Notes: generated from the sequence alone by a model not told the origin. 25,975 nucleotides of DNA from Thermoplasmatales archaeon (GCA_023140035.1 JAGLML010000001.1:1-25975); one strand, 5' to 3'. Shown: positions 15,685 through 25,975, counted from the stretch's first letter. Made by a program: numbers and translations.

Positions 15685-16344
15685 TTAGATGGATACAAAG
15701 ATTGCTGCATGATCCTTTTCGTACGGTGCCAAATCTATTATTTTAATAATTTTTAGGGCATGATCTTCAAGTTGTGAACATGCAAGCTTGTACGCTTGTT
15801 TTGGCTGTAGAGAAACATCAATACTCCGTGCCTTCACCATGAAAATGCCGGTGCCTTTCTTCTTTAAATATCTGTTCACATTTGCTATGAAAATTTCTGC
15901 TTGATTCCTCTGAGATATATCTTGATAAATGAGATCAACAGAAGGAACAAGAGAGCTATACTGATCTGGATGATTTGCATCTCCTAAAATAGGGATGACA
16001 TTCGTTCTTTTTTCACTTACTTTTATCAAATCATGAACAGCAACTGGTGAATTTTCAACTGCATACACAATGCCTTTTTTTATTATATCTGAAATATGAC
16101 TTACGGTTGTTCCTGTTGCCGCACCAAGGTATAAGATATAGTCATCGGGTTTTATGTCCACTATAAATCCTTTGAGAATTGCCGCAGCAAGTTTGCTTCT
16201 GTATGGATTCCATGATCGGAATTCTCTCTTTTTATAAGTTATTAATTTTTCATTGTATACTTTGATTCCTCTACACGAATCGAGATTTTCTGTAAAAATC
16301 CTGTTTTTTTCTTTGAAAACACCCTCTATTTCGGTAGGTTTCAT
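15685..16344 (-). CDS. flpA: Fibrillarin-like rRNA/tRNA 2'-O-methyltransferase
   Basis: VYNEK, RSWNPYRSKLAAAI, LYLGAATGTTVSH, YQDISQRNQA and PYEKDH. Confidence 0.97.
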   Translation of the reverse strand: MKPTEIEGVFKEKNRIFTENLDSCRGIKVYNEKLITYKKREFRSWNPYRSKLAAAILKGFIVDIKPDDYILYLGAATGTTVSHISDIIKKGIVYAVENSPVAVHDLIKVSEKRTNVIPILGDANHPDQYSSLVPSVDLIYQDISQRNQAEIFIANVNRYLKKKGTGIFMVKARSIDVSLQPKQAYKLACSQLEDHALKIIKIIDLAPYEKDHAAIFVSI

Positions 16345-16426
16345 TACTGTATGTTATAAGATGTGTTCGATAAATAATTTGTCGAAATGTTTTACTATAA
16401 CAATAATATACACGTGGTCGATAGAT

Positions 16427-17533
16427 ATGGTGTTGAGATCCCCATTATTAAATATTCAGAAAGGTCTTGGAGCAAAATTTACTAAGTTTGCTGACTTTGA
16501 AATGCCAATACAGTATTCGTCAATAAAAGACGAACATTTAGCTGTAAGAAGATCTGTTGGTCTTTTTGACGTCTCTCATATGAGTAATGTATGGATTACA
16601 GGAAAAGATGCGGAAAAACTGATTAGTCTGACTACTGTAGAAGATGCGTCAAGAATTGGAGATGGTTTAAGCCAGTATACTGCCATATTGCGAGAAGATG
16701 GTACGGTCATCGATGATACGATTTTTATGCACTTGGGGGAGAAATACATGATAATTCCAAATGCAGGGATGGCAACTACTGTTACTAAATGGCTTAATGA
16801 GAAAGCCAAAGAATATAATCTCAATGCAAAAGCTGAAGATGTTTCTCGAGATTTTGTGATTCTTGCGATACAAGGTCCAAAATCAAGAGATACCTTACAG
16901 AAACTAACTGATACAGATCTCAATACTGTGAAATTTTTTGGCTGCCAGTATATTGATATCAGTGGTGTACACTGCATCATTTCACATACAGGATATACTG
17001 GAGAATTAGGATTTGAGTTGCAAATAACTCCGCCTAAAGAAGCAGAAGACCCGTTTTATAAAATTCTTGACGCTGGAAAAGAATTCAATATAAAACCAAT
17101 CGGTCTTGGTGCACGTGATACTCTACGACTTGAGAAATGTTTCATTCTCGCAGGTAATGAATTTGAAGGAGGAAGAACACCCCTTGAAGCTATTATGTCT
17201 TGGACGATAAACTGGGATCATGCGTTCATAGGAAAAGACGCTCTTCTAAAGCAAAAGGAGCAGGGAGATTATGAACGGTTGACCTCCCTGGAATGCGTTG
17301 ACAAAGGTATACCACGACATGGATGTGAAATACGAAAAGATGGGGAAAAGGTAGGTGTTGTCTCAAGTGGAACATTGTCTCCGTGTTTAAACAGAGGTAT
17401 AGCAATGGGATACGTTCGTCCTGAATTTAGAGACGCAGGCAATATACTTGAGATTGTTGTGAGAAATAAGCCAATGAAAGCTAGGGTGGTGAAACCACCG
17501 TTTGTTAAGAAAGACTGGGCACAGCAACATTAG
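16427..17533 (+). CDS. gcvT: Glycine cleavage system T protein (aminomethyltransferase)
   Basis: FADFEMPIQY, EHLAVR..VGLFDVSHM, TGYTGELGFE and GLGARDTLRLE; start moved to ATG 16427 because the track start overlaps flpA. Confidence 0.95.
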   Translation: MVLRSPLLNIQKGLGAKFTKFADFEMPIQYSSIKDEHLAVRRSVGLFDVSHMSNVWITGKDAEKLISLTTVEDASRIGDGLSQYTAILREDGTVIDDTIFMHLGEKYMIIPNAGMATTVTKWLNEKAKEYNLNAKAEDVSRDFVILAIQGPKSRDTLQKLTDTDLNTVKFFGCQYIDISGVHCIISHTGYTGELGFELQITPPKEAEDPFYKILDAGKEFNIKPIGLGARDTLRLEKCFILAGNEFEGGRTPLEAIMSWTINWDHAFIGKDALLKQKEQGDYERLTSLECVDKGIPRHGCEIRKDGEKVGVVSSGTLSPCLNRGIAMGYVRPEFRDAGNILEIVVRNKPMKARVVKPPFVKKDWAQQH

Positions 17534-18602: not shown

Positions 18603-19850
18603 ATGGGTGAATCAAAGTTAGAAGCTGCTATAGGGATGTCTCGAAAATGGGATGCACGGGAGGCAGGGAGAGAAGTTACTAGATCTACAATTGAAAAATT
18701 AACTCGACCTCCAGATTTTTTCCTATTATTTTCTACGATTCATTATGAAAAAAATGGTGGTTTTGAGGAGCTTCTAAACGGGGTCTGGGACGTATTGCCA
18801 AAAGGAACGCCTCTCGCTGGTGGTACTGTTGCTGGGTTTATGAATAATTATGGGTGTTATGCGAGGGGGGCAACTGCATTAGCTTTTTCTTATCCAAATA
18901 TTAATGTGGCTGTTGGTGTTGGGAATAATACAAAAAGAAATCCAAAGAAAGCTGCTAAAGAATGCGCTGAAATGATTATGAAACAAAATATCAAGGTTGA
19001 CTTTTATTTTGAATTTATCTCTGGTCCAATAATTCCAACATTTCCTGGAATTGGAAAACAAACTGTAATAAGGTCAAAAACCTCAGGGAATTTAATGAAA
19101 AAGATGATACCCGCCCTTTTTAGGGCCAATAGGGGTACGGATAGAGCCGATGAATTTCTAGAGCATTTAGTTAAATATATTGATAGCCCATTAATTGGTG
19201 CTGTATGTTATGATGATGGAAAACTTTCAAAAAATTATCAATTCTTCAATAAAGAAATATTAAAAAATTCTGCAATACTTCTAGGCATATCTACAGATAT
19301 GGTTCCAGAATTTCAAACTGTTTCTGCTCTCAAATCACGGGGAGTTAAGATAAAAGTTAAACGTGAAAAAGACAATAGAACCGTAACCAAGATCGATGAT
19401 AAAATCGCCACTCCAGAATTATTTAGAATATTGAATTGGAAAGAAGGAAATGTAAAAGAAGTTGAAAAATTCTACTCTCAGGCATTTTATTATCCATTTT
19501 GTTATAAGAAAGAAGATAAGATTCATGCTGTTATGTTGGGTCTTATACTAGGAGAAAATATCTATTTTGCAAACAAAATAGAATCAGATGAATTGGAATT
19601 GTTTGGTTTAACAGGAAATAAAATAATATCCGAATGCAAAAAGGCTTTTTCAAAAAAAAGTGATCTGGTATATGGCGTAATTTGTGAGACTTACATAGAG
19701 ACACTTGGTAGCAGTGTTTATAAAATAAAGGACATAATAGATAATTCCACAAAAGATTATTTGCTTTTGTTTGCTGGAGGAGAAAGTATAGTTTATAAAA
19801 ATATGGTTCCTCATCATTTGTATGAAAGTATAAATATTCTAAGAATCTGA
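18603..19850 (+). CDS. Standalone FIST-domain sensory protein
   Basis: SRKWDAREAGREV, PDFFLLFST, PLAGGTVAG and LIGAVCYDDG; no output domain recognised. Confidence 0.78.
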   Translation: MGESKLEAAIGMSRKWDAREAGREVTRSTIEKLTRPPDFFLLFSTIHYEKNGGFEELLNGVWDVLPKGTPLAGGTVAGFMNNYGCYARGATALAFSYPNINVAVGVGNNTKRNPKKAAKECAEMIMKQNIKVDFYFEFISGPIIPTFPGIGKQTVIRSKTSGNLMKKMIPALFRANRGTDRADEFLEHLVKYIDSPLIGAVCYDDGKLSKNYQFFNKEILKNSAILLGISTDMVPEFQTVSALKSRGVKIKVKREKDNRTVTKIDDKIATPELFRILNWKEGNVKEVEKFYSQAFYYPFCYKKEDKIHAVMLGLILGENIYFANKIESDELELFGLTGNKIISECKKAFSKKSDLVYGVICETYIETLGSSVYKIKDIIDNSTKDYLLLFAGGESIVYKNMVPHHLYESINILRI

Positions 19851-21017
19851 ACTTAATTTTTTCTTTATATAACTTTCTGCTTCTTTCTCCTTAAGTTTCT
19901 TTAATTTTTTAAGATCTTTGTAATTAAGTTTATCTGAAAAAATACCAAGCTCTAAGAAAAATCTTTCTTTCGCTTTATTTTCATATGCTGTAACTAGAGC
20001 ATTACCTATTTCATTAGATTCAATAAAAAATTCCCCCATTTTTTCTTTAATCAATTTTTTATAAGTAGATTCTATTTTACTAATACAGTTCATGCATATT
20101 GCAGCAGACTTACCAGCCAATGAACCACATATTATTCCGGGTATAACTCCTTCGACAAAAGGTTTTAAGTTTTGATTGGCGGTATCTCCTACAAACATTA
20201 TATTTCCATAAGAAATTTTTTCAGATGGATTTTTTACCGGTGCTTCCCCACTTCTATCTATGACCATTTTAGAGCCGTGTATTTGATTCTTAATTATTTT
20301 GAGGAAATCATCAAATTTTGCGTCAATGTTTTTGTTACTTAGAGTGGCTATTCCAATATTCGCAGAAGTTTCAGATTTTGGGAAAATATAACCATATGCT
20401 CCATCTGCAAATTCTCCAAAGAATACATGTCCATATTGGAAATCATCCAGAGAAAGATCATGAAACTCATAGCTTTTTATATATCCTATAGAAGTTTGTT
20501 GTTTTTTTAATTTACCTATCGATTTTAAGACATTTGACTCGACACCGTCTGCAGCAATTAGAATCTTGGGTTTAATTCTAATTGATTCATTATTTTCAGT
20601 ATTTTGGGCAATTATTTTATCCACCATAAAATTATTATCATATCTCAAATCAATGAATTCTGTGAGAGGTGAAAATGTAGCTCCTTCATTAATTGCTAGA
20701 TCTAAAACGAAAGGATCAAATTCATTTCTGTTCAACGGATGGGATTTCCACCAAATATCCTCATCTCTTGTTATAATAAAATCATTATAATAAAATTTAA
20801 GACCATTTAACTCCCACTTTAAAAATCTATCAGGAATTTTGAAAGGCAAGTATTCTAGAAATGCTTTACTCAGTGTTTCAGCACATGCATCTTTTGTAGG
20901 CATCTCTTTCTTTTCAATAATTACTACATCCAAATCTTCTTTTGCAGATGCCCATGCTGCGGAACTTCCAGCAGGTCCAGCTCCAACCACCAGTATATCA
21001 CATTCAATATCCTTCAT
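19839..21017 (-). CDS. Geranylgeranyl reductase-family FAD-dependent oxidoreductase
   Basis: VVGAGPAGSSAA, RNEFD..L, IAADGVES, YGYIFPK and VGDTA. Confidence 0.87.
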   Translation of the reverse strand: MKDIECDILVVGAGPAGSSAAWASAKEDLDVVIIEKKEMPTKDACAETLSKAFLEYLPFKIPDRFLKWELNGLKFYYNDFIITRDEDIWWKSHPLNRNEFDPFVLDLAINEGATFSPLTEFIDLRYDNNFMVDKIIAQNTENNESIRIKPKILIAADGVESNVLKSIGKLKKQQTSIGYIKSYEFHDLSLDDFQYGHVFFGEFADGAYGYIFPKSETSANIGIATLSNKNIDAKFDDFLKIIKNQIHGSKMVIDRSGEAPVKNPSEKISYGNIMFVGDTANQNLKPFVEGVIPGIICGSLAGKSAAICMNCISKIESTYKKLIKEKMGEFFIESNEIGNALVTAYENKAKERFFLELGIFSDKLNYKDLKKLKKLKEKEAESYIKKKLSSDS

Positions 21018-21043
21018 AATGGATCGCTCTTTTTTTCTACATT

Positions 21044-22144
21044 TTAATTTTCATTAAATAAATCTAATATTTTGTTTATCTTTTCATCACTATTATCATA
21101 TTCGCCATTAAACGCCCTTATTAATTTATCAAAAAAATTATTATTGGCTTTTCTCCATATTTCCCTTGCAAAAAAAATATCTTTAAACTCTTTCTGAATC
21201 CTATTTGCATATTCAGTATATATACTAAGGTCATTTTTCTTTATTGCATTTGCTGCAAAATAAGCAGATTCTATTGCATAATTTAGCCCATAACCTAAAA
21301 ATGGATCATAAAAAAGAGCGGCTCCCCCTATGAATAGAGTATTTCCTAAAAGAACTTCTTGAATACCAGAAATTCCAATGCCGCCAAAATAGTTTTTAAC
21401 AGTGAACTTTTCCTTCGTGTTTCTCTCTAAGAAAAAGTTTAGACGCTGTTTTAATGATTCGTTCTTAGTGAATTTATCATCAGTCATTAAGCAGAAGAAA
21501 ATTTCCTTACCAACTGACCCTGAATATATATAGCCGCCAGGAGCGATTTTTTCATCAAGATATATTTTTGCATGAGGGATAACATCGCTTTGGCATGACT
21601 CGATTAATACCCCAAAACCATTGAATTTAGCAAAATTCTCTGTGTCGATATTTAATCTTTTTCTGAACTCTGACTCAGGACCATCTGCAACGATAACATA
21701 CCTTGGTTTTATCTCGATTTTTTTACTGTCTTTATTAACCTTAACCGTCGCAATTTCTTTCTTCTTTAATTCAATAAAATTCACTTTCGCTTTGAAAAAA
21801 ACATCTGCTTTATTGTTCAATTTTTTCAACAAAACATTTTCAAGCGAATCCTCACCTGGCCCTCTTTTAAAATAAAAATCCTCAATTTCAGATTCAATGA
21901 TATGGCTATAATTAGGGGAAAGCCACTCTGATCTAGAAGATGTTTTATTTGTGTTTATACCTATTTCATCAATTATCTCACGTATTCTATTACCTTCGGT
22001 TATATCATATTTAGTGTGTTTTGGTCCACAAGTTTTGCTTTTTTCCAGAACAATCGTAGAAAAACTCTTGTTGGATAAAAATAAAGCTGCTGATAAACCG
22101 GCAGGCCCACCGCCAACTACTAGTACATCACATTTAATTGACAT
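21044..22144 (-). CDS. Geranylgeranyl reductase-family FAD-dependent oxidoreductase (divergent)
   Basis: VVGGGPAGLSAA, VADGPES, APGGYIY and IGGAALFYDPFLGYGLNYA. Confidence 0.83.
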   Translation of the reverse strand: MSIKCDVLVVGGGPAGLSAALFLSNKSFSTIVLEKSKTCGPKHTKYDITEGNRIREIIDEIGINTNKTSSRSEWLSPNYSHIIESEIEDFYFKRGPGEDSLENVLLKKLNNKADVFFKAKVNFIELKKKEIATVKVNKDSKKIEIKPRYVIVADGPESEFRKRLNIDTENFAKFNGFGVLIESCQSDVIPHAKIYLDEKIAPGGYIYSGSVGKEIFFCLMTDDKFTKNESLKQRLNFFLERNTKEKFTVKNYFGGIGISGIQEVLLGNTLFIGGAALFYDPFLGYGLNYAIESAYFAANAIKKNDLSIYTEYANRIQKEFKDIFFAREIWRKANNNFFDKLIRAFNGEYDNSDEKINKILDLFNEN

Positions 22145-22331
22145 ATGAATAAACTCATATTATTGATTTTATTTAAATACATCTCTGAATTATTAATAAT
22201 ATTTTATGAATTCGAGCTTCTTCCTGAAATGTTTTAGATAGATCAAGATACCGGTCATTTCCTCATTTCTAAAGATAACTTTAGGGGGAAAATATTGTTT
22301 CATATAATTTAAAAATTGCATTGTTCTTTAA

Positions 22332-22925
22332 TTATGTCGTCTCTACGCTTCTTGTTGAAAGAGGGAAAATACCCGACCTTCTTTGTTGACCATACCAACG
22401 CATCACTAGGTATGCTCCATCGAAAAGTAACATTGCCAGGAGAAAATAGAAAGGTACAATACCCAATAGTACGAAACCGAAAATTGCAATTTTTAATAAC
22501 CATCTCTGGTCAAAAAAATATTTTACAAAATTATGCCAAAGCCTGTCACCGTTAAAGTATTTTTTATTGTAGTCTATAACATCATTCCCTACTTCATCTA
22601 AAAGAGCGAACGGTGCAAGAAATAGTAAGGGAATGATCATCAATTCGACGCCCGCTAGAACGATTATGATCAGTATAGCTAATAATCCAGCTAAGTGTGC
22701 ATGATTGTCAATTTTGCCTTTAAAAAGAACACCACATAAAACAGCTAAAAGGATAGTGGCCGAAATTCTATCAATGAGCATTGTATATGCCCATAAAATA
22801 CCAAGCAGAGGAGCAATAACCAAGGCTATTTTTTTATTGAATCTTTTTTCATCAAACGCATCGTCTATATATTTTATACCAGCGCCCAGGAGGGGGTAAG
22901 ATAATAAAAAGAAATACATACTCAT
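22332..22925 (-). CDS. Integral membrane protein with Asp-rich motifs, function unknown
   Basis: About 6-7 hydrophobic segments; KYIDDAFD, GKIDNHAH and LLDEVGND; ATG overlaps the upstream stop (ATGA). Confidence 0.75.
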   Translation of the reverse strand: MSMYFFLLSYPLLGAGIKYIDDAFDEKRFNKKIALVIAPLLGILWAYTMLIDRISATILLAVLCGVLFKGKIDNHAHLAGLLAILIIIVLAGVELMIIPLLFLAPFALLDEVGNDVIDYNKKYFNGDRLWHNFVKYFFDQRWLLKIAIFGFVLLGIVPFYFLLAMLLFDGAYLVMRWYGQQRRSGIFPLSTRSVETT

Positions 22926-23116
22926 TCTCTCCCCTTTTTTATCCTTTCATTGACGTCACGTTTTAACCTTTTTTTATTGAATGACCACCTTTTATCTCCC
23001 ATTTCTGTGTCAAAACAGATGGTACCATAAATACATTTTTCGCACCTAGGTATGCAAGTGGACATGTTGGTAACGAGCAGCCTTTCATCTTGGACTAACC
23101 CACTTACTTTATTCAT
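22922..23116 (-). CDS. Small Cys-rich peptide (about 64 aa; Cx3Cx2Cx5C)
   Basis: MNKVSGLVQDERLLVTNMSTCIPRCEKCIYGTICFD...; stop coupled to the next gene by an ATGA overlap; TTATATAA at 23149-23156 upstream; start uncertain (track gives 23167). Confidence 0.6.
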   Translation of the reverse strand: MNKVSGLVQDERLLVTNMSTCIPRCEKCIYGTICFDTEMGDKRWSFNKKRLKRDVNERIKKGRE

Positions 23117-23176
23117 TTCTTCTATGTCTCCAATTTTGTAAAAAGAAATTATATAATAAAGCCCCAATATGAAAAA

Positions 23177-23224
23177 TTCCTACAAAACACTAAAATAGTA
23201 GGTGAATTTTTACTATTGTAGGAA
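23177..23224. promoter_or_regulatory. Nested inverted repeats in the divergent promoter upstream of the Lrp gene (putative operator)
   Basis: TTCCTACAA (23177-23185) / TTGTAGGAA (23216-23224); AATAGTA (23194-23200) / TACTATT (23211-23217). Confidence 0.5.
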
Positions 23225-23226
23225 AT

Positions 23227-24198
23227 ATGGTAAAAATAGATTTGAAAGATAGAAGAATACTATATCAGTTAGATTTGGATTCAAGGCAACCATTAACCCA
23301 AATTGGAAGGAAAGTTGGTTTAAAAAAAGATGTAGTATCGTACAGAATAAAAAGACTTTGGGATGAGGGTGTTATAAAAAAATTTTACGCCGTTATTGAC
23401 GCGTATAAACTAGGGTATAATGTTTTTAGATTCTATTTGGAATTCCAATATGTAGCTCCCGAAATTAAAAATGAAATAATTGAACATTTTGTAAATTATA
23501 AAAACACCTGGGTTGTTTACTCAATTAGAGAAAAATACGATCTGGGACTCGTTCTTTGGGTAAAAAATATTCAGGAATTCCATAATTTTTGGGATAACAC
23601 ACTAGATAAGTATGGAGATTATTTTGCTAAAAAAATATTTTCTATTTATATGCAGGCATTTTCTTATAGACCTTCATATTTGTTATTGGATAAATATAAA
23701 AAATCTGATAGATCAGATTATGAAATTGTTGGAATGGGGAAAAAAGTTGACATTGATGCTTTGGATTATAATTTATTAAATAAATTGGCGGTGAACGCTC
23801 GGACATCGCTTATTGAGCTTGCGGAGGAACTCGGTTGTTCACCACAAGCAGTAAATTATAGAATAAAGAATCTGATCAAATCAAGGGTGATTCAAGCGTT
23901 TAGAACTGCAATTGACATTTCAAAACTAGGTCTTCATCAGTATAAAATTGATATATACCTTAAAGAACATAAACAGAGGAAAAATATAATTAATTATGTA
24001 AAATACAATCCAAATTTGATGTTTATAAGCACTTCTGCAGGTTTCTCTGATTTAGAGCTGGAATTTCATTTAGAAAATGCAGATAAAGTAAATCATGTTA
24101 TGGAGGAAATTTCGAAGAAATTTCCTGGAGCTATTCGCAATTATGATTATATAAGTGCTAACAGGTTTTATAAGGTGCGCTTAATGCCAGAATTATGA
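23227..24198 (+). CDS. Tandem (double) Lrp/AsnC-family transcriptional regulator
   Basis: Two AsnC HTH units (DLKDRRILYQL..SRQPLTQIG..VSYRIKRL and DALDYNLLNKL..ARTSLIELA..VNYRIKNL), each followed by a RAM-like domain. Confidence 0.92.
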   Translation: MVKIDLKDRRILYQLDLDSRQPLTQIGRKVGLKKDVVSYRIKRLWDEGVIKKFYAVIDAYKLGYNVFRFYLEFQYVAPEIKNEIIEHFVNYKNTWVVYSIREKYDLGLVLWVKNIQEFHNFWDNTLDKYGDYFAKKIFSIYMQAFSYRPSYLLLDKYKKSDRSDYEIVGMGKKVDIDALDYNLLNKLAVNARTSLIELAEELGCSPQAVNYRIKNLIKSRVIQAFRTAIDISKLGLHQYKIDIYLKEHKQRKNIINYVKYNPNLMFISTSAGFSDLELEFHLENADKVNHVMEEISKKFPGAIRNYDYISANRFYKVRLMPEL

Positions 24199-25975
24199 AG
24201 CAAACTCTCTGATTCTTTCTTTGGTTTTTTAGAAGAAATAAGACTATATCGTAACGGTAGACCTAAAAACTTCTCATTCTCCCTAAAAACAATTCCATTT
24301 TGCACAAAGTTTTGTAAAATCTCTAGGAGTTTATCTTCAGAAACATATGAAAATTTCTCTCTTACCTCCTGAAAAGTAATAACATCCATACAAGAAAGAA
24401 AGAGTTCTCTTTCAAGTTCATTTAGTATATAAATCATAATATTCTCAGGATTTCTCTTATCATAAATTTTAATAAATTCTTCGCCGTCTACAAAATAAAA
24501 AATAAGTGTATCAATTTCTTTTTGTGTTTTAATCCCTATCATTTGTAGTTTTTCCCGTTCATCTATCCAATTCTTCACAAACTGATCCCATTCATTCTCA
24601 CAGACAGCAATTTTTTTCTTATAGCTATAAAAGAAGCTCAAGCCCTTTTCCAAATACTCAATAGGAAACATAAGCTTATCAATAGTAGTGTACTCTAATC
24701 GTTCAATATTAAATAGGGCGGGATTTTCATAAATAGGACTACCAAAGCTCACTACGAAATGGCTTATATGAGGTGGATCTAGAAACTGCTTAAAAAGCTG
24801 AACATTTTTCTTTGTCTCCTCAAAATCAATTTCTTCCTCATTAGGATAATTAACAATGATATTATAACTATTTTTAATATCATTTTCCTTACAAAATTTT
24901 AAAGCAGCTATATTATCAATTACGCGAACGCCCTTATTGATTTTCTCTAGGTAATGCTGACTAAAGGTTTCAATACCTGTCTGAATTGTACTAAAGCCAG
25001 CATTCTTTAATAAAGTGTAATCCTCGCTTTTCAACTTACCTGCACGTGCTTCTACGTAGAAAGTAAAATCTCTACCAAGCTCCCTAAGTTTTTCAAATAA
25101 AGCCCGATAATTCTTTTTTGGAAGAGTGTTTCCAAGCAGTTGAAAAGTCAACATCTTGTACTCGTCTGACAAGAATATTATTTCTTCAATTAATCGGTCA
25201 AAATCTTTCTCCCGATACATCTTATGATAAGCTTTAAGATTACAAAAACTACATCGATTCCACCAACAACCGCGTGAAATTTCTATGGGAATTCTCCCGT
25301 AGAGGTAGAAATATTGTTGTATTTCCTCGGATGTTGATGTCAACTCCGAATAAAAAGAGGAAAAAGATGGAAAAGGAAGATTATTCAAATCAATGAAATC
25401 ATCTGATTTGTTCCAAATAATCTCCTCTCCAGCCCGATAAATTAAATTTGGAAGGAATTTATGATTTTGAAAATCAGAGGCGAGACGATAAAGAGGCTCT
25501 TCACCTTCTCCTGATACAATAAAATCCACGTATTCGAATGCCTCCAAGGTTTTAATTCCAATTTCATTTATGGTTCTACTACCACCAAAAATAATCTTCT
25601 TTTCTGGATCTAATTCTTTGATTTTTTTGGCAATTGCCAACGATGGAAGGAATTGTCCATAATTTAACGTAAATCCAATAATATCATAATCTCTCCATTC
25701 AACAGTTTCTATAGCCCAATTGTAAAAATTATCCGTCTGTTGTACATACCTTTCAAAAGTAAAATCCTTTTTGATGCCTTTGGATTCAGAGACCTGTTTT
25801 TCAAAATATTCTCGAAATTTATGCTCATTGGTTGTCCAATGATCTGGAAAAACATACTTTGCAAAAACCATCTGAGCAGTATATGAATCATTGGGGCTGT
25901 TAATTAATAAGTTGTAATTTTTTAACCCATAAAACTCAGCAGCCTTTAGATATAGATGCCTTGTTTTTATGTTGA
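24168..25975 (-). CDS. B12-binding radical SAM enzyme resembling RiPP-maturation C-methyltransferases; 5' end outside the window
   Basis: B12-binding-like GFTLNYGQ..SLAIAKKIK..IIFGG..VSGEGE; SRGCWWNRCSFC; QTGIETFS; C-terminal IYDKR..E..LF winged-helix-like segment; the frame is open for 34 more codons from 25871 to the window end. Confidence 0.85.
   Translation of the reverse strand, partial: NIKTRHLYLKAAEFYGLKNYNLLINSPNDSYTAQMVFAKYVFPDHWTTNEHKFREYFEKQVSESKGIKKDFTFERYVQQTDNFYNWAIETVEWRDYDIIGFTLNYGQFLPSLAIAKKIKELDPEKKIIFGGSRTINEIGIKTLEAFEYVDFIVSGEGEEPLYRLASDFQNHKFLPNLIYRAGEEIIWNKSDDFIDLNNLPFPSFSSFYSELTSTSEEIQQYFYLYGRIPIEISRGCWWNRCSFCNLKAYHKMYREKDFDRLIEEIIFLSDEYKMLTFQLLGNTLPKKNYRALFEKLRELGRDFTFYVEARAGKLKSEDYTLLKNAGFSTIQTGIETFSQHYLEKINKGVRVIDNIAALKFCKENDIKNSYNIIVNYPNEEEIDFEETKKNVQLFKQFLDPPHISHFVVSFGSPIYENPALFNIERLEYTTIDKLMFPIEYLEKGLSFFYSYKKKIAVCENEWDQFVKNWIDEREKLQMIGIKTQKEIDTLIFYFVDGEEFIKIYDKRNPENIMIYILNELERELFLSCMDVITFQEVREKFSYVSEDKLLEILQNFVQNGIVFRENEKFLGLPLRYSLISSKKPKKESESLLHNSGIKRTL

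Follow-up and report, generated by a model that had tools for sequence, protein, structure and literature searches.

A conserved and apparently undescribed two-layered archaeal gene cluster around an orphan membrane protein in Thermoplasmatales

Genes and control elements of the locus

The window analysed here is the whole of contig JAGLML010000001.1 (25,975 nt) in the Thermoplasmatales archaeon assembly GCA_023140035.1, whose host belongs to a cold-seep sediment lineage of Thermoplasmatota, with the MAG SM1-50 in the same family. ORF calls bore out every gene (Table 1) that a preliminary description had placed between 18603 and 25975, but the start of that span has to be moved to 18089, as the Roadblock-like gene that forms the left edge of the module had been missed. 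The expectation that the cluster continues past the window was barely borne out: all that the contig end cuts off from the radical SAM gene is about 37 N-terminal codons, and the next genes in the nearest relative encode a CBS-domain membrane protein (recognised by eye from the translation) and then an acetyl-CoA synthetase. Glycine-cleavage genes border the module in the host locus.

Table 1. Features of the locus, numbered from the first nucleotide of the window
Feature	Coordinates	Strand	Evidence and remarks
Roadblock/LC7-like small protein, 137 aa	18089..18502	+	language-model neighbours; conserved synteny
Stand-alone FIST protein, 415 aa	18603..19850	+	PF08495 FIST_N 57.3 bits (cut-off 23.2); convergent with reductase genes
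GGR-family flavoreductase 1 (GGR1), 392 aa	19839..21017	-	TIGR02032 146.5 bits; PF22578 29.4 bits
GGR-family flavoreductase 2 (GGR2), 366 aa	21044..22144	-	more divergent; TIGR02032 98.9 bits; FAD_binding_3 72.9 bits
Integral membrane protein, 197 aa, ~7-8 helices	22332..22925	-	invariant acidic motifs; orphan
Small ORF, 64 aa (ATG 23116; likelier) or 81 aa (TTG 23167)	22922..23116 or 22922..23167	-	stop overlaps membrane gene start
Nucleotide-level conserved element TGCATA-N6-TGCGAAAAA-N-TATTTAT	23023..23070	-	inside small ORF; promoter- or operator-like
Divergent control region, palindromic operator TTCCTACAA ... TTGTAGGAA	23165..23224	.	TATA-like boxes in both directions
Tandem (double) Lrp/AsnC regulator, 323 aa	23227..24198	+	two HTH_24/HTH_AsnC domains
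B12-type radical SAM enzyme	24168..25975	-	5'-truncated at contig end; TIGR03975 295.9 bits (cut-off 281.85)

The Roadblock-like protein matched no Pfam family, and PF03259 in particular gave nothing at E values up to 10; its language-model neighbours include Robl_LC7 clusters, and PF03259 is carried by those neighbours only. In the FIST protein, FIST_C was not reported by the Pfam search, the NosP equivalog scored 30 bits where its cut-off is 450, and no solved relative was found.

Both reductases carry the GxGxxG signature of the FAD dinucleotide fold (GAGPAG in GGR1, GGGPAG in GGR2), and the best solved relative of each is 3OZ2, the lipid reductase of T. acidophilum (E 3e-23 for GGR1 and 9e-17 for GGR2). 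The PF22578 (GGR_cat) cut-off of 27 bits is exceeded by GGR1 only, and both proteins stay below the TIGR02032 cut-off of 158.8 bits. Since a six-frame search of the genome gave them 147.1 and 99.2 bits and found better GGR copies elsewhere, at 248 and 217 bits, the two are not the standard archaeal lipid reductases, in line with the preliminary description. Furthermore, they score at most 106.5 bits against the digeranylgeranylglycerophospholipid reductase equivalogs NF041160, NF041080 and NF041385, for which the cut-offs are 580-780. Of the catalytic Cys and the substrate-anchoring motifs RxxFD and YxWxFP, as defined from the structures of the S. acidocaldarius and T. acidophilum enzymes, GGR1 has Cys45, RNEFD and YGYIFP; GGR2 has Cys39 and lacks the RxxFD, YxWxFP-like and GD motifs.

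The alignment of the membrane protein, for which a profile search collected 399 representatives, contains the motifs YIDDAFDE, KGKxDN, LDExGNDxxD, FDQRW and LFDxxY, and 44 columns, four acidic motifs included, are invariant among sequences of 48-83% identity. Pfam and NCBIfam gave no match even at E 10. Its AlphaFold model (pLDDT 85) resembles no PDB fold, as the best Foldseek E value was 0.9 and VIA aligned partial helices only, at Z below 8; the ESM Atlas gave no match, and AFDB returned members of its own family only; in particular, none of Pfam, NCBIfam, Foldseek and VIA connected it with UbiA, CDP-alcohol phosphotransferase, CarS or dolichol kinase. The positively charged loops, as read from sequence and model, suggest that the acidic motifs face the cytoplasm. 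It is motif conservation alone that leads us to call this protein a putative enzyme, no relative of known function being detectable.

The family of the radical SAM enzyme is clearer from its 93% identical full-length orthologue (638 aa), which matches TIGR03975, the family of the polytheonamide methylases, at 341.7 bits over profile positions 1-606 of 606. The motif Cx4Cx2C (RGCWWNxCxFCN) occurs in 120 of 120 orthologues and Cx3Cx2C in none; three cysteines still remain for a cluster. The cobalamin-binding family PF02310 reached 21.7 bits against a cut-off of 32.1, in a region that the TIGR03975 match covers. The C-terminal domain is modelled as three beta strands plus a winged helix, in beta3-alpha3 order, and has no PqqD match in Pfam.

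In the double Lrp regulator the HTH matches (residues 5-51 and 176-216) are strong, at 75 bits, and the RAM domain PF01037 is weak, at 17.8 bits against a cut-off of 25. The 59-bp divergent intergenic region contains a perfect 9-nt inverted repeat (23177-23185 and 23216-23224) inside longer imperfect arms and is 91% identical in four genomes of the genus. In addition, about 20 loci of Thermoplasmatota have the operator 10-mer as an inverted pair 5' of the small-ORF operon, with 30 matches where about five were expected. The inverted-repeat promoter proposed earlier is thus a real, conserved operator-like element.

The small ORF is open, with its stop overlapping the next gene, in at least 12 relatives' loci. 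Its sequence is poorly conserved save for one central motif, C-E-K-x-x-Y, in which the Glu-x3-Tyr spacing is kept in 12 of 13 loci, and only one of its four Cys is invariant among relatives; no family match was found in Pfam or NCBIfam, and no leader was recognisable. A DNA alignment of the embedded element shows that even the third codon positions are invariant, copies were also found by nhmmer in non-ORF settings, and the nearest relative keeps the element but reads it in a different frame. What had been described as a Cys peptide is thus a real ORF, but because the motif is constrained at the nucleotide level and a single Cys is invariant, it speaks only weakly for a RiPP core.

Two layers and their distribution across archaea

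Synteny was examined in 80 loci retrieved by way of the membrane protein. Of these, 52 have GGR genes; counted by adjacency, membrane and GGR genes are neighbours in 52 of 76 loci, from at least five phyla. A Roadblock-like gene lies beside the FIST or membrane gene in half of the loci (40 of 80), again across phyla. FIST and KaiC genes are present in 36 and 30 of the 80, respectively; 23 have the radical SAM gene, 22 have the double Lrp gene, and in 22 loci these two are paired. This co-localisation, which the preliminary description had proposed to check across archaea, is far beyond chance, so that its absence, named there as a ground for rejecting the proposal, is clearly contradicted. The majority of relatives have the order Lrp< >rSAM>(small ORF)>membrane>GGR. 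That the genes are mere neighbours without functional relation is barely credible: in the host's genus the radical SAM and Lrp genes are indeed convergent and glycine-cleavage genes abut the module, but the gene order survives rearrangements across families and phyla, and this synteny contradicts such a reading. We found no published description of the cluster, which is conserved and apparently undescribed.

The locus consists of two layers, a pan-archaeal module and an added part. The first comprises the Asp-rich membrane protein, one or two GGR-family flavoreductases, the Roadblock-like protein, FIST and usually a KaiC-like ATPase, and is found in Thermoplasmatota, DPANN lineages, Methanomicrobia/ANME-1 and Hydrothermarchaeota. 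In the host's genus the KaiC gene is not adjacent, its nearest homologue lying on a different contig. The second layer, limited to Thermoplasmatota relatives among the loci examined, comprises the TIGR03975-type B12 radical SAM enzyme, the double Lrp, and the palindromic operator/promoter 5' of the enzyme-coupled small ORF. It is also seen with other enzyme sets: in loci without the membrane gene the radical SAM/Lrp/operator unit precedes lipid-type enzymes of other kinds, an acyl-ACP-reductase-like dehydrogenase and an FAD-type N-terminus with GxGxxG at a contig end (by eye only). Furthermore, it occurs on its own, the radical SAM/Lrp pair standing alone beside purA.

Possible functions of the cluster

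The preliminary description favoured a modified peptide or prenylated small molecule that is made and sensed at the locus, as in quorum sensing. In a RiPP-like version of this idea, the radical SAM enzyme would bind the small-ORF peptide through an RRE-like winged helix and C-methylate it, the membrane protein and flavoenzymes would tailor it (e.g. by lipidation or oxidation) or export it, and FIST and Lrp would sense it. The full-profile TIGR03975 match above its cut-off speaks for this, and the public annotation, 'RiPP maturation radical SAM C-methyltransferase', agrees. The C-terminal domain has the RRE regions of TigE, CteB and MibB among its top VIA matches (Z 6.6-6.7), but generic winged helices score equally; one relative encodes it in a gene of its own (118 aa), which lies after the radical SAM gene and before the small ORF. 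In many loci a small ORF comes 3' of the radical SAM gene, also where the membrane protein has given way to other enzymes, and in one genome it is fused in frame with the next enzyme. On the other hand, about half of the radical SAM loci lack the motif-bearing ORF, the pair can stand alone, and the motif is constrained as DNA, recurring outside ORFs and out of frame. There is also no NHLP- or Nif11-type leader, and neither a protease nor a transporter in the window or the relatives' flanks. Above all, DPANN and Methanomicrobia have the FIST/membrane protein/reductase module without radical SAM, Lrp or small peptide, so making a peptide cannot be what the module does in general. We consider a RiPP-like route for the radical SAM part unlikely, and a diffusible quorum-sensing signal is not borne out either, as the locus has no exporter, no protease and no receptor kinase.

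A narrower variant, which we hold to be very improbable, is a peptide-derived redox cofactor, as in the PQQ and mycofactocin pathways, with the radical SAM enzyme and flavoenzymes converting the Glu-x3-Tyr/Cys motif of the small ORF. That motif, with its near-constant spacing, may resemble PqqA, and there are weak matches, far below cut-off, of GGR2 to LodB and of GGR1 to QhpG, both peptide-quinone maturases. However, all objections to a RiPP-like product apply here, the radical SAM enzyme is of the B12 class and not of the SPASM class found in those pathways, and nucleotide-level constraint accounts for the motif.

Quite unlikely, in our estimate, is a cluster that is mainly a signalling device, with a switch made up of the KaiC-like ATPase, the Roadblock-like protein and FIST, a membrane protein that serves this switch as sensor or anchor, and GGR-like flavoproteins that sense redox state or a ligand instead of acting in biosynthesis. 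KaiC, Roadblock-like and FIST genes do stay together even in genomes without membrane and GGR genes, and Methanomicrobia encode the KaiC domain in one chain with a large membrane domain, next to genes for a FilR1-type regulator and a histidine kinase/receiver. But catalytic hallmarks are kept in GGR1, the invariant acidic clusters of the membrane protein suggest metal-dependent catalysis rather than ligand sensing, and varied enzyme sets stand beside the same regulators, as in biosynthetic loci.

The best explanation, which we put forward tentatively and at somewhat less than an even chance, is that the locus is the Thermoplasmatota version of an old pan-archaeal module for regulated membrane-isoprenoid tailoring; lipid or quinone tailoring, the alternative in the preliminary description, is the better of its two readings. 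The genes present, their conservation and families and the cis-elements are shown directly; the substrate class, the catalytic roles and the protein at the operator are what we infer, as follows. The DDxxDE and NDxxD motifs of the putative membrane enzyme, at cytoplasmic helix ends, would coordinate Mg2+ and bind a lipid with a phosphate or diphosphate group, for example polyprenyl phosphate or a precursor of archaeal lipids, and the two GGR paralogues would saturate double bonds in its substrate or product. FIST and the Roadblock-like protein, with the KaiC-like ATPase in most other lineages, would sense or switch the pathway. In the added layer, the radical SAM enzyme would methylate an unactivated carbon of that product or of the small peptide, and the double Lrp, as the presumed operator-binding protein, would control the promoter of the coupled small ORF and enzyme genes.

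Isoprenoid tailoring is supported by the adjacency of membrane and GGR genes with Roadblock-like, FIST and KaiC partners, by the archaeal lipid reductase structures that both reductases match best, and by the invariant acidic motifs of the membrane protein. The lipid-type enzymes that replace the membrane gene behind the radical SAM/Lrp/operator unit and the additional phytoene-desaturase-like flavoenzyme of the DPANN versions also support it, as do the conserved operator and the recurring gene order. Against it stand the peptide-methylation family name of the radical SAM enzyme with its winged-helix domain of a peptide-binding kind, the loss of hallmark motifs from GGR2, and the lack of any isoprenoid synthase, UbiA-type transferase or lipid head-group gene in the cluster; KaiC, Roadblock and FIST could, moreover, stand for signalling that has nothing to do with lipids. 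According to PMC11868695, no assessment of lipids has ever been made in sedimentary Thermoplasmatales.

A bolder form of the idea, which we judge unlikely, makes the membrane protein an integral-membrane prenyl or lipid transferase of a new type, with which the cluster would produce a novel membrane compound in these sediment archaea, while FIST/Roadblock/KaiC and the double Lrp would read the level of that compound. The product would then be either an isoprenoid lipid that is saturated and C-methylated, or a small ribosomal peptide that the radical SAM enzyme methylates before it is lipidated. No characterised system would be a counterpart to such sensor-controlled production of a lipid or lipopeptide.

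Comparison with known systems

The radical SAM enzyme resembles the TIGR03975 RiPP C-methyltransferases in its full-length match over the curated cut-off, C-terminal domain included, but differs from them in being archaeal, in having Cx4Cx2C for the usual Cx3Cx2C, in lacking an NHLP/Nif11-type precursor and in its partners, a double Lrp and lipid-type enzymes. With the B12 radical SAM lipid methylases (hopanoid HpnP/HpnR and ladderane-type TIGR04072) it shares the enzyme class and an isoprenoid-type enzyme context, whereas its scores of 53-57 bits lie far under their cut-offs.

Archaeal KaiC-like ATPases reportedly form 'signal transduction hub' neighbourhoods, as Makarova, Galperin and Koonin are said to have set out in mBio in 2017. 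Most versions of the module are like these hubs in pairing a single-domain KaiC-like ATPase with Roadblock-fold and sensor-like genes; the host's genus is unlike them, with its KaiC gene away from the module. Archaeal Lrp/AsnC regulators, e.g. Ss-LrpB, recognise palindromic TTGYA...TRCAA-type boxes, and the regulator described here is similar in its HTH_AsnC domains and in a putative palindromic operator with TACAA/TTGTA half-sites at a divergent promoter; unlike them, it has two complete Lrp units per chain, with RAM domains that are only weakly recognisable.

The two flavoreductases, finally, share the FAD Rossmann fold and their best matches with the archaeal GGRs (Ta0516m, 3OZ2; S. acidocaldarius, 3ATQ; and the quinone/dolichol prenyl reductase paralogues), and GGR1 further shares the GGR catalytic domain, the Cys at the catalytic position, RxxFD and YxYxFP. 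Unlike those enzymes, neither reaches the family cut-off or comes near that of any lipid-reductase equivalog, GGR2 is without the key motifs, and the pair are extra copies whose partners are sensor-like genes and an orphan membrane protein.

Gene content and limits of the locus

The window comprises the complete 25,975-bp contig (GC 0.345) of a MAG that is 64% complete. Related records and public run labels put it among sedimentary Thermoplasmatota of cold seeps and marine sediments, in one family with the published MAG SM1-50. All of the genes that the preliminary description had assigned to a biosynthesis-and-sensing cluster were found at the locus, while the span given for the cluster has to be extended, as it had overlooked the gene of a Roadblock-like protein, which forms one boundary of the module.

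Genes of the module and the adjoining regulator and radical SAM genes in the window
Feature	Position	Strand	Remark
Roadblock/LC7-like protein, 137 aa	18089-18502		no Pfam match; language-model neighbours Roadblock/LC7
FIST	18603-19850	+	
GGR-family flavoreductase, GGR1	19839-21017	-	
GGR-family flavoreductase, GGR2	21044-22144	-	
Membrane protein, 197 aa	22332-22925	-	
Small ORF	22922-23167	-	terminates on the start codon of the membrane gene
Double Lrp, 323 aa	23227-24198	+	two complete Lrp/AsnC units
B12-type radical SAM gene	24168-25975	-	interrupted by the contig end

At the other boundary, the source assembly contains no continuation contig. In the nearest relative (proteins 93-99% identical), the radical SAM gene encodes 638 aa, and has on its 5' side some 950 bp that hold a few small ORFs restricted to the genus, beyond which lie genes for a CBS-domain membrane protein, acetyl-CoA synthetase, Alba and ThiD (each of the four assigned by eye in the ORF translations). 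The cluster therefore effectively ends there, and does not continue far past the window; the preliminary description had expected it to continue. The small ORFs 5' of the radical SAM gene in the same-genus relatives (L012:14350-14965 (-), L011:9240-9876 (+) and L013:6920-7224 (+), the L-numbers denoting loci from related genomes) include two soluble families of ~40-45 aa, kept in all three of these genomes, and two hydrophobic ORFs of 32-41 aa, present in only two of the three; both kinds are absent in other genera. A 33-aa hydrophobic ORF at this position in two relatives was set aside, being genus-specific and outside this contig. The gcvT and gcvH genes are neighbours unrelated to the module. 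In the region 16253-16430, the gcvT ORF, if begun at the TTG at 16253, shares 92 bases with the end of the minus-strand ORF upstream of it; as GcvT homology starts near residue 60, its true start is probably downstream.

A conserved membrane-associated module

The same genes recur jointly within the genus and the family. Using a pattern search with the membrane-protein alignment, we retrieved 80 loci with flanks of up to 10 kb and clustered all of their ORFs. The membrane protein was present in 76 loci, the geranylgeranyl reductase (GGR) family in 52, the Roadblock-like protein in 40, FIST in 36, a single-domain KaiC-like ATPase in 30, the radical SAM enzyme in 23 and the double Lrp in 22. In the DPANN lineages (Iain-, Micr- and Aenigmarchaeota) the order is KaiC > membrane > Roadblock-like > GGR (> GGR) < FIST, often with a phytoene-desaturase-like flavoenzyme as well. 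Methanomicrobia, ANME-1 and Hydrothermarchaeota have a FilR1-type regulator, the membrane gene, a protein of ~1000 aa and two GGR genes. The ~1000-aa protein consists of a large membrane domain and a C-terminal KaiC domain; FIST or Roadblock domains, considered for it in Methanomicrobia, were rejected, since only the KaiC part finds a match. The Thermoplasmatota order is Lrp < > rSAM > (small ORF) > membrane (> membrane) > GGR (> GGR) < FIST < Roadblock-like (< KaiC), rSAM denoting the radical SAM gene. In the source genus the Lrp gene has been relocated and now stands divergent to the small ORF and convergent with the radical SAM gene. The KaiC homologue is found on a different contig. As co-localization is conserved across lineages, the families are not the unlinked ones, nor the reductases standard lipid enzymes among unrelated neighbours, that the preliminary description had allowed for; chance adjacency we consider highly improbable.

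Two further associations were observed. The source-genome protein most similar to the module's KaiC-like ATPase (49% identity; contig C200, L105:1520-5035) is encoded after a second KaiC gene and ahead of a 155-aa membrane methyltransferase of the PEMT/ICMT family and a radical SAM protein of 371 aa, and this locus is another pairing of KaiC with a membrane-lipid-type enzyme. In four Hydrothermarchaeota loci (L076, L081, L084 and L089) the membrane and KaiC-fusion genes lie directly upstream of genes of the cobalamin lower pathway (CobD-type aminotransferase, CobQ and CbiB); this may be coincidence, yet the Thermoplasmatota version recruits a B12 enzyme.

The membrane protein, whose family has 399 representatives in a library of 1.8 billion proteins, matches nothing in Pfam or NCBIfam up to an E-value of 10. 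Its AlphaFold model (pLDDT 85) contains about eight helices, with no fold match in the PDB (Foldseek; VIA wide) or the ESM Atlas; the search of AFDB returned family members only, for one of which the annotation gives a fusion with an AdoMet-decarboxylase-like protein. A Pfam scan of the longer members of the family, made to find fusions, revealed chimeric artefacts only. Four acidic motifs, YIDDAFDE, KGKxDN, LDExGNDxxD and FDQRW, are made up of its invariant residues, and by the positive-inside rule would face the cytoplasm at the membrane. Their layout may be likened to that of Mg2+-dependent enzymes for prenyl diphosphates or nucleotide-activated lipids. Both flavoreductases have the lipid reductases of T. 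acidophilum and S. acidocaldarius as best matches; GGR1 keeps the catalytic domain and its motifs and GGR2 is degenerate, both score under the family cut-off, and better GGR copies exist elsewhere in the genome.

Our tentative reading, plausible though far from assured, is that the locus carries out regulated isoprenoid tailoring. A membrane isoprenoid would be the substrate of the older module, given the GGR chemistry, the putative membrane enzyme with its candidate metal-binding motifs and the lipid-type enzymes in variant loci, and the part of sensor and switch would fall to the FIST, Roadblock-like and KaiC proteins. That the locus serves signalling purely is distinctly improbable, and the quorum sensing proposed earlier was rejected because export and receptor components are absent.

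The radical SAM/double Lrp layer, its putative operator and the small ORF

Radical SAM orthologues occur in 18 of the 24 genomes of the family, in several of which the membrane protein has no match; the radical SAM/double Lrp layer is thus separable from the older module. In these genomes the Lrp/radical SAM pair is followed by a 400-430-aa protein of unassigned family, an acyl-ACP-reductase-like dehydrogenase and an FAD-type enzyme (by eye), or by a 319-aa uncharacterized protein, or by nothing related, purA adjoining; KaiC, Roadblock-like and FIST genes are sometimes still present nearby. One relative carries a second radical SAM copy, broken by a stop or frameshift, next to the intact one (L100:8449-9758 (-)). 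The double Lrp is a multi-copy family in the source genome, as contig C190 (L104:3163-7301) encodes three more paralogues of 324 aa, 47% identical to the window copy and all on the same strand, two adjacent and the third ~1 kb further; they adjoin an amino-acid permease fused to a PTS EIIA domain.

The enzyme is a bona fide member of TIGR03975, the complete orthologue scoring 342 bits over the full profile, and the Cx4Cx2C motif is present in 120/120 orthologues examined, which public databases label RiPP maturation C-methyltransferases. The C-terminal ~110 residues are modelled as three strands, three helices and a wing, and have no PqqD match in Pfam; their best structural matches include the RRE regions of TigE, CteB and MibB, with generic winged helices scoring equally. 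A relative without the membrane gene encodes this domain a second time, in a 118-aa gene of its own (L103:2619-2975 (+)) that is flanked by the radical SAM gene and the small motif ORF. Both the family assignment and the winged-helix domain point to a peptide or protein as the favoured substrate. A complex prediction for the orthologue with the small ORF bears neither way (score 0.00, partner pLDDT 26).

In most Thermoplasmatota loci, the stop of the small ORF and the start of the enzyme gene next downstream overlap, and the frame is free of stops over 40-90 codons in AT-rich DNA, a point in favour of translation; in the window, the ATG at 23116 is its more likely start. About 14 loci have in common the motif IS[TN][CY]IxxCEK[GCD][IF]Y, in which the second Cys alone is invariant. 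The codons TGC, GAA, AAA and TAT show zero synonymous variation across genera, while the adjoining Ser and Thr codons vary. A DNA-profile search also located the motif away from such ORFs, namely in the gap separating tandem membrane genes, immediately 5' of other genes, and ahead of a non-coding stretch that is itself conserved. In the closest relative, the loss of 1 nt and the gain of 10 nt shift the frame of the motif, with the ORF still open and the DNA motif intact. As judged from these patterns, the motif is constrained as DNA, and in its 3' half it resembles an archaeal BRE/TATA promoter. The Cys peptide of the preliminary description stands as an open ORF, and is weak evidence for a RiPP core. 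This constraint and the distribution of the small ORF argue against a simple RiPP picture, and we regard a RiPP-like route as unlikely and a peptide-derived cofactor as highly improbable. The automatic RiPP-maturation label that hundreds of archaeal proteins carry may be mistaken or incomplete.

Two genomes of the genus (L018:276-400 and L019:420-540) have a copy of the element, TGCATA-N6-TGCGAAAAA, ahead of a near-identical stretch closed in all frames, a possible small RNA gene under a promoter of this type. In another relative (L101:7435-8736 (-)) the motif, as TCIPRCEKDIY, is in frame with a 433-aa protein of unassigned family that replaces the membrane protein, a possible fusion. The public runs that contain the sequence are DNA runs only.

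Upstream of the small ORF lies the palindrome TTCCTACAAAA...TTTTGTAGGAA, followed by GGGGCTTTAT(G/T)T and also written TTCCTACAA...TTGTAGGAA, a candidate double-Lrp site. The inverted repeat noticed at the outset was borne out: it is 91% conserved in the genus, and recurs as an inverted pair ahead of the small-ORF operon in ~20 loci, irrespective of the enzymes that follow. The 10-mer has 30 matches in 2.44 Mb, against ~5 expected. As the sole regulator that travels with the palindrome, the double Lrp is likely to bind it.

Possible implications for archaeal membrane lipids

Among the GGR paralogues of archaea are many without an assigned role, and we know of no account of how archaea sense and adjust membrane composition. 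The module, which joins a highly conserved membrane protein and several GGR-type enzymes with FIST, Roadblock-fold and KaiC-like proteins, is a candidate for such control. It is found in at least five phyla, including small-genome DPANN lineages that, to our knowledge from published accounts, are without lipid biosynthesis of their own; besides those in Methanomicrobia, homologues are also present in Methanobacteriota. Under the isoprenoid-tailoring reading, the added radical SAM enzyme would methylate the module's product or a peptide; this B12 methylase, the double Lrp and the well-defined operator offer experimental entry points.

These sedimentary Thermoplasmatota are present in cold-seep and marine-sediment metagenomes. 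A 2025 paper (PMC11868695) states that lipids have never been examined in sedimentary Thermoplasmatales. New lipid modifications in this group, if true, would affect the reading of sedimentary archaeal lipid biomarkers. The accessible parts of the literature retrieved on BDGT lipids and radical SAM enzymes assign no methylase to BDGT lipids. Our literature search found no paper linking FIST, GGR and archaea, and, with the 2017 KaiC-hub paper outside its coverage, no published description of the module. Beyond the core module, this analysis adds the radical SAM/double Lrp layer and its use in modular form, along with the operator and a revised view of the small ORF.
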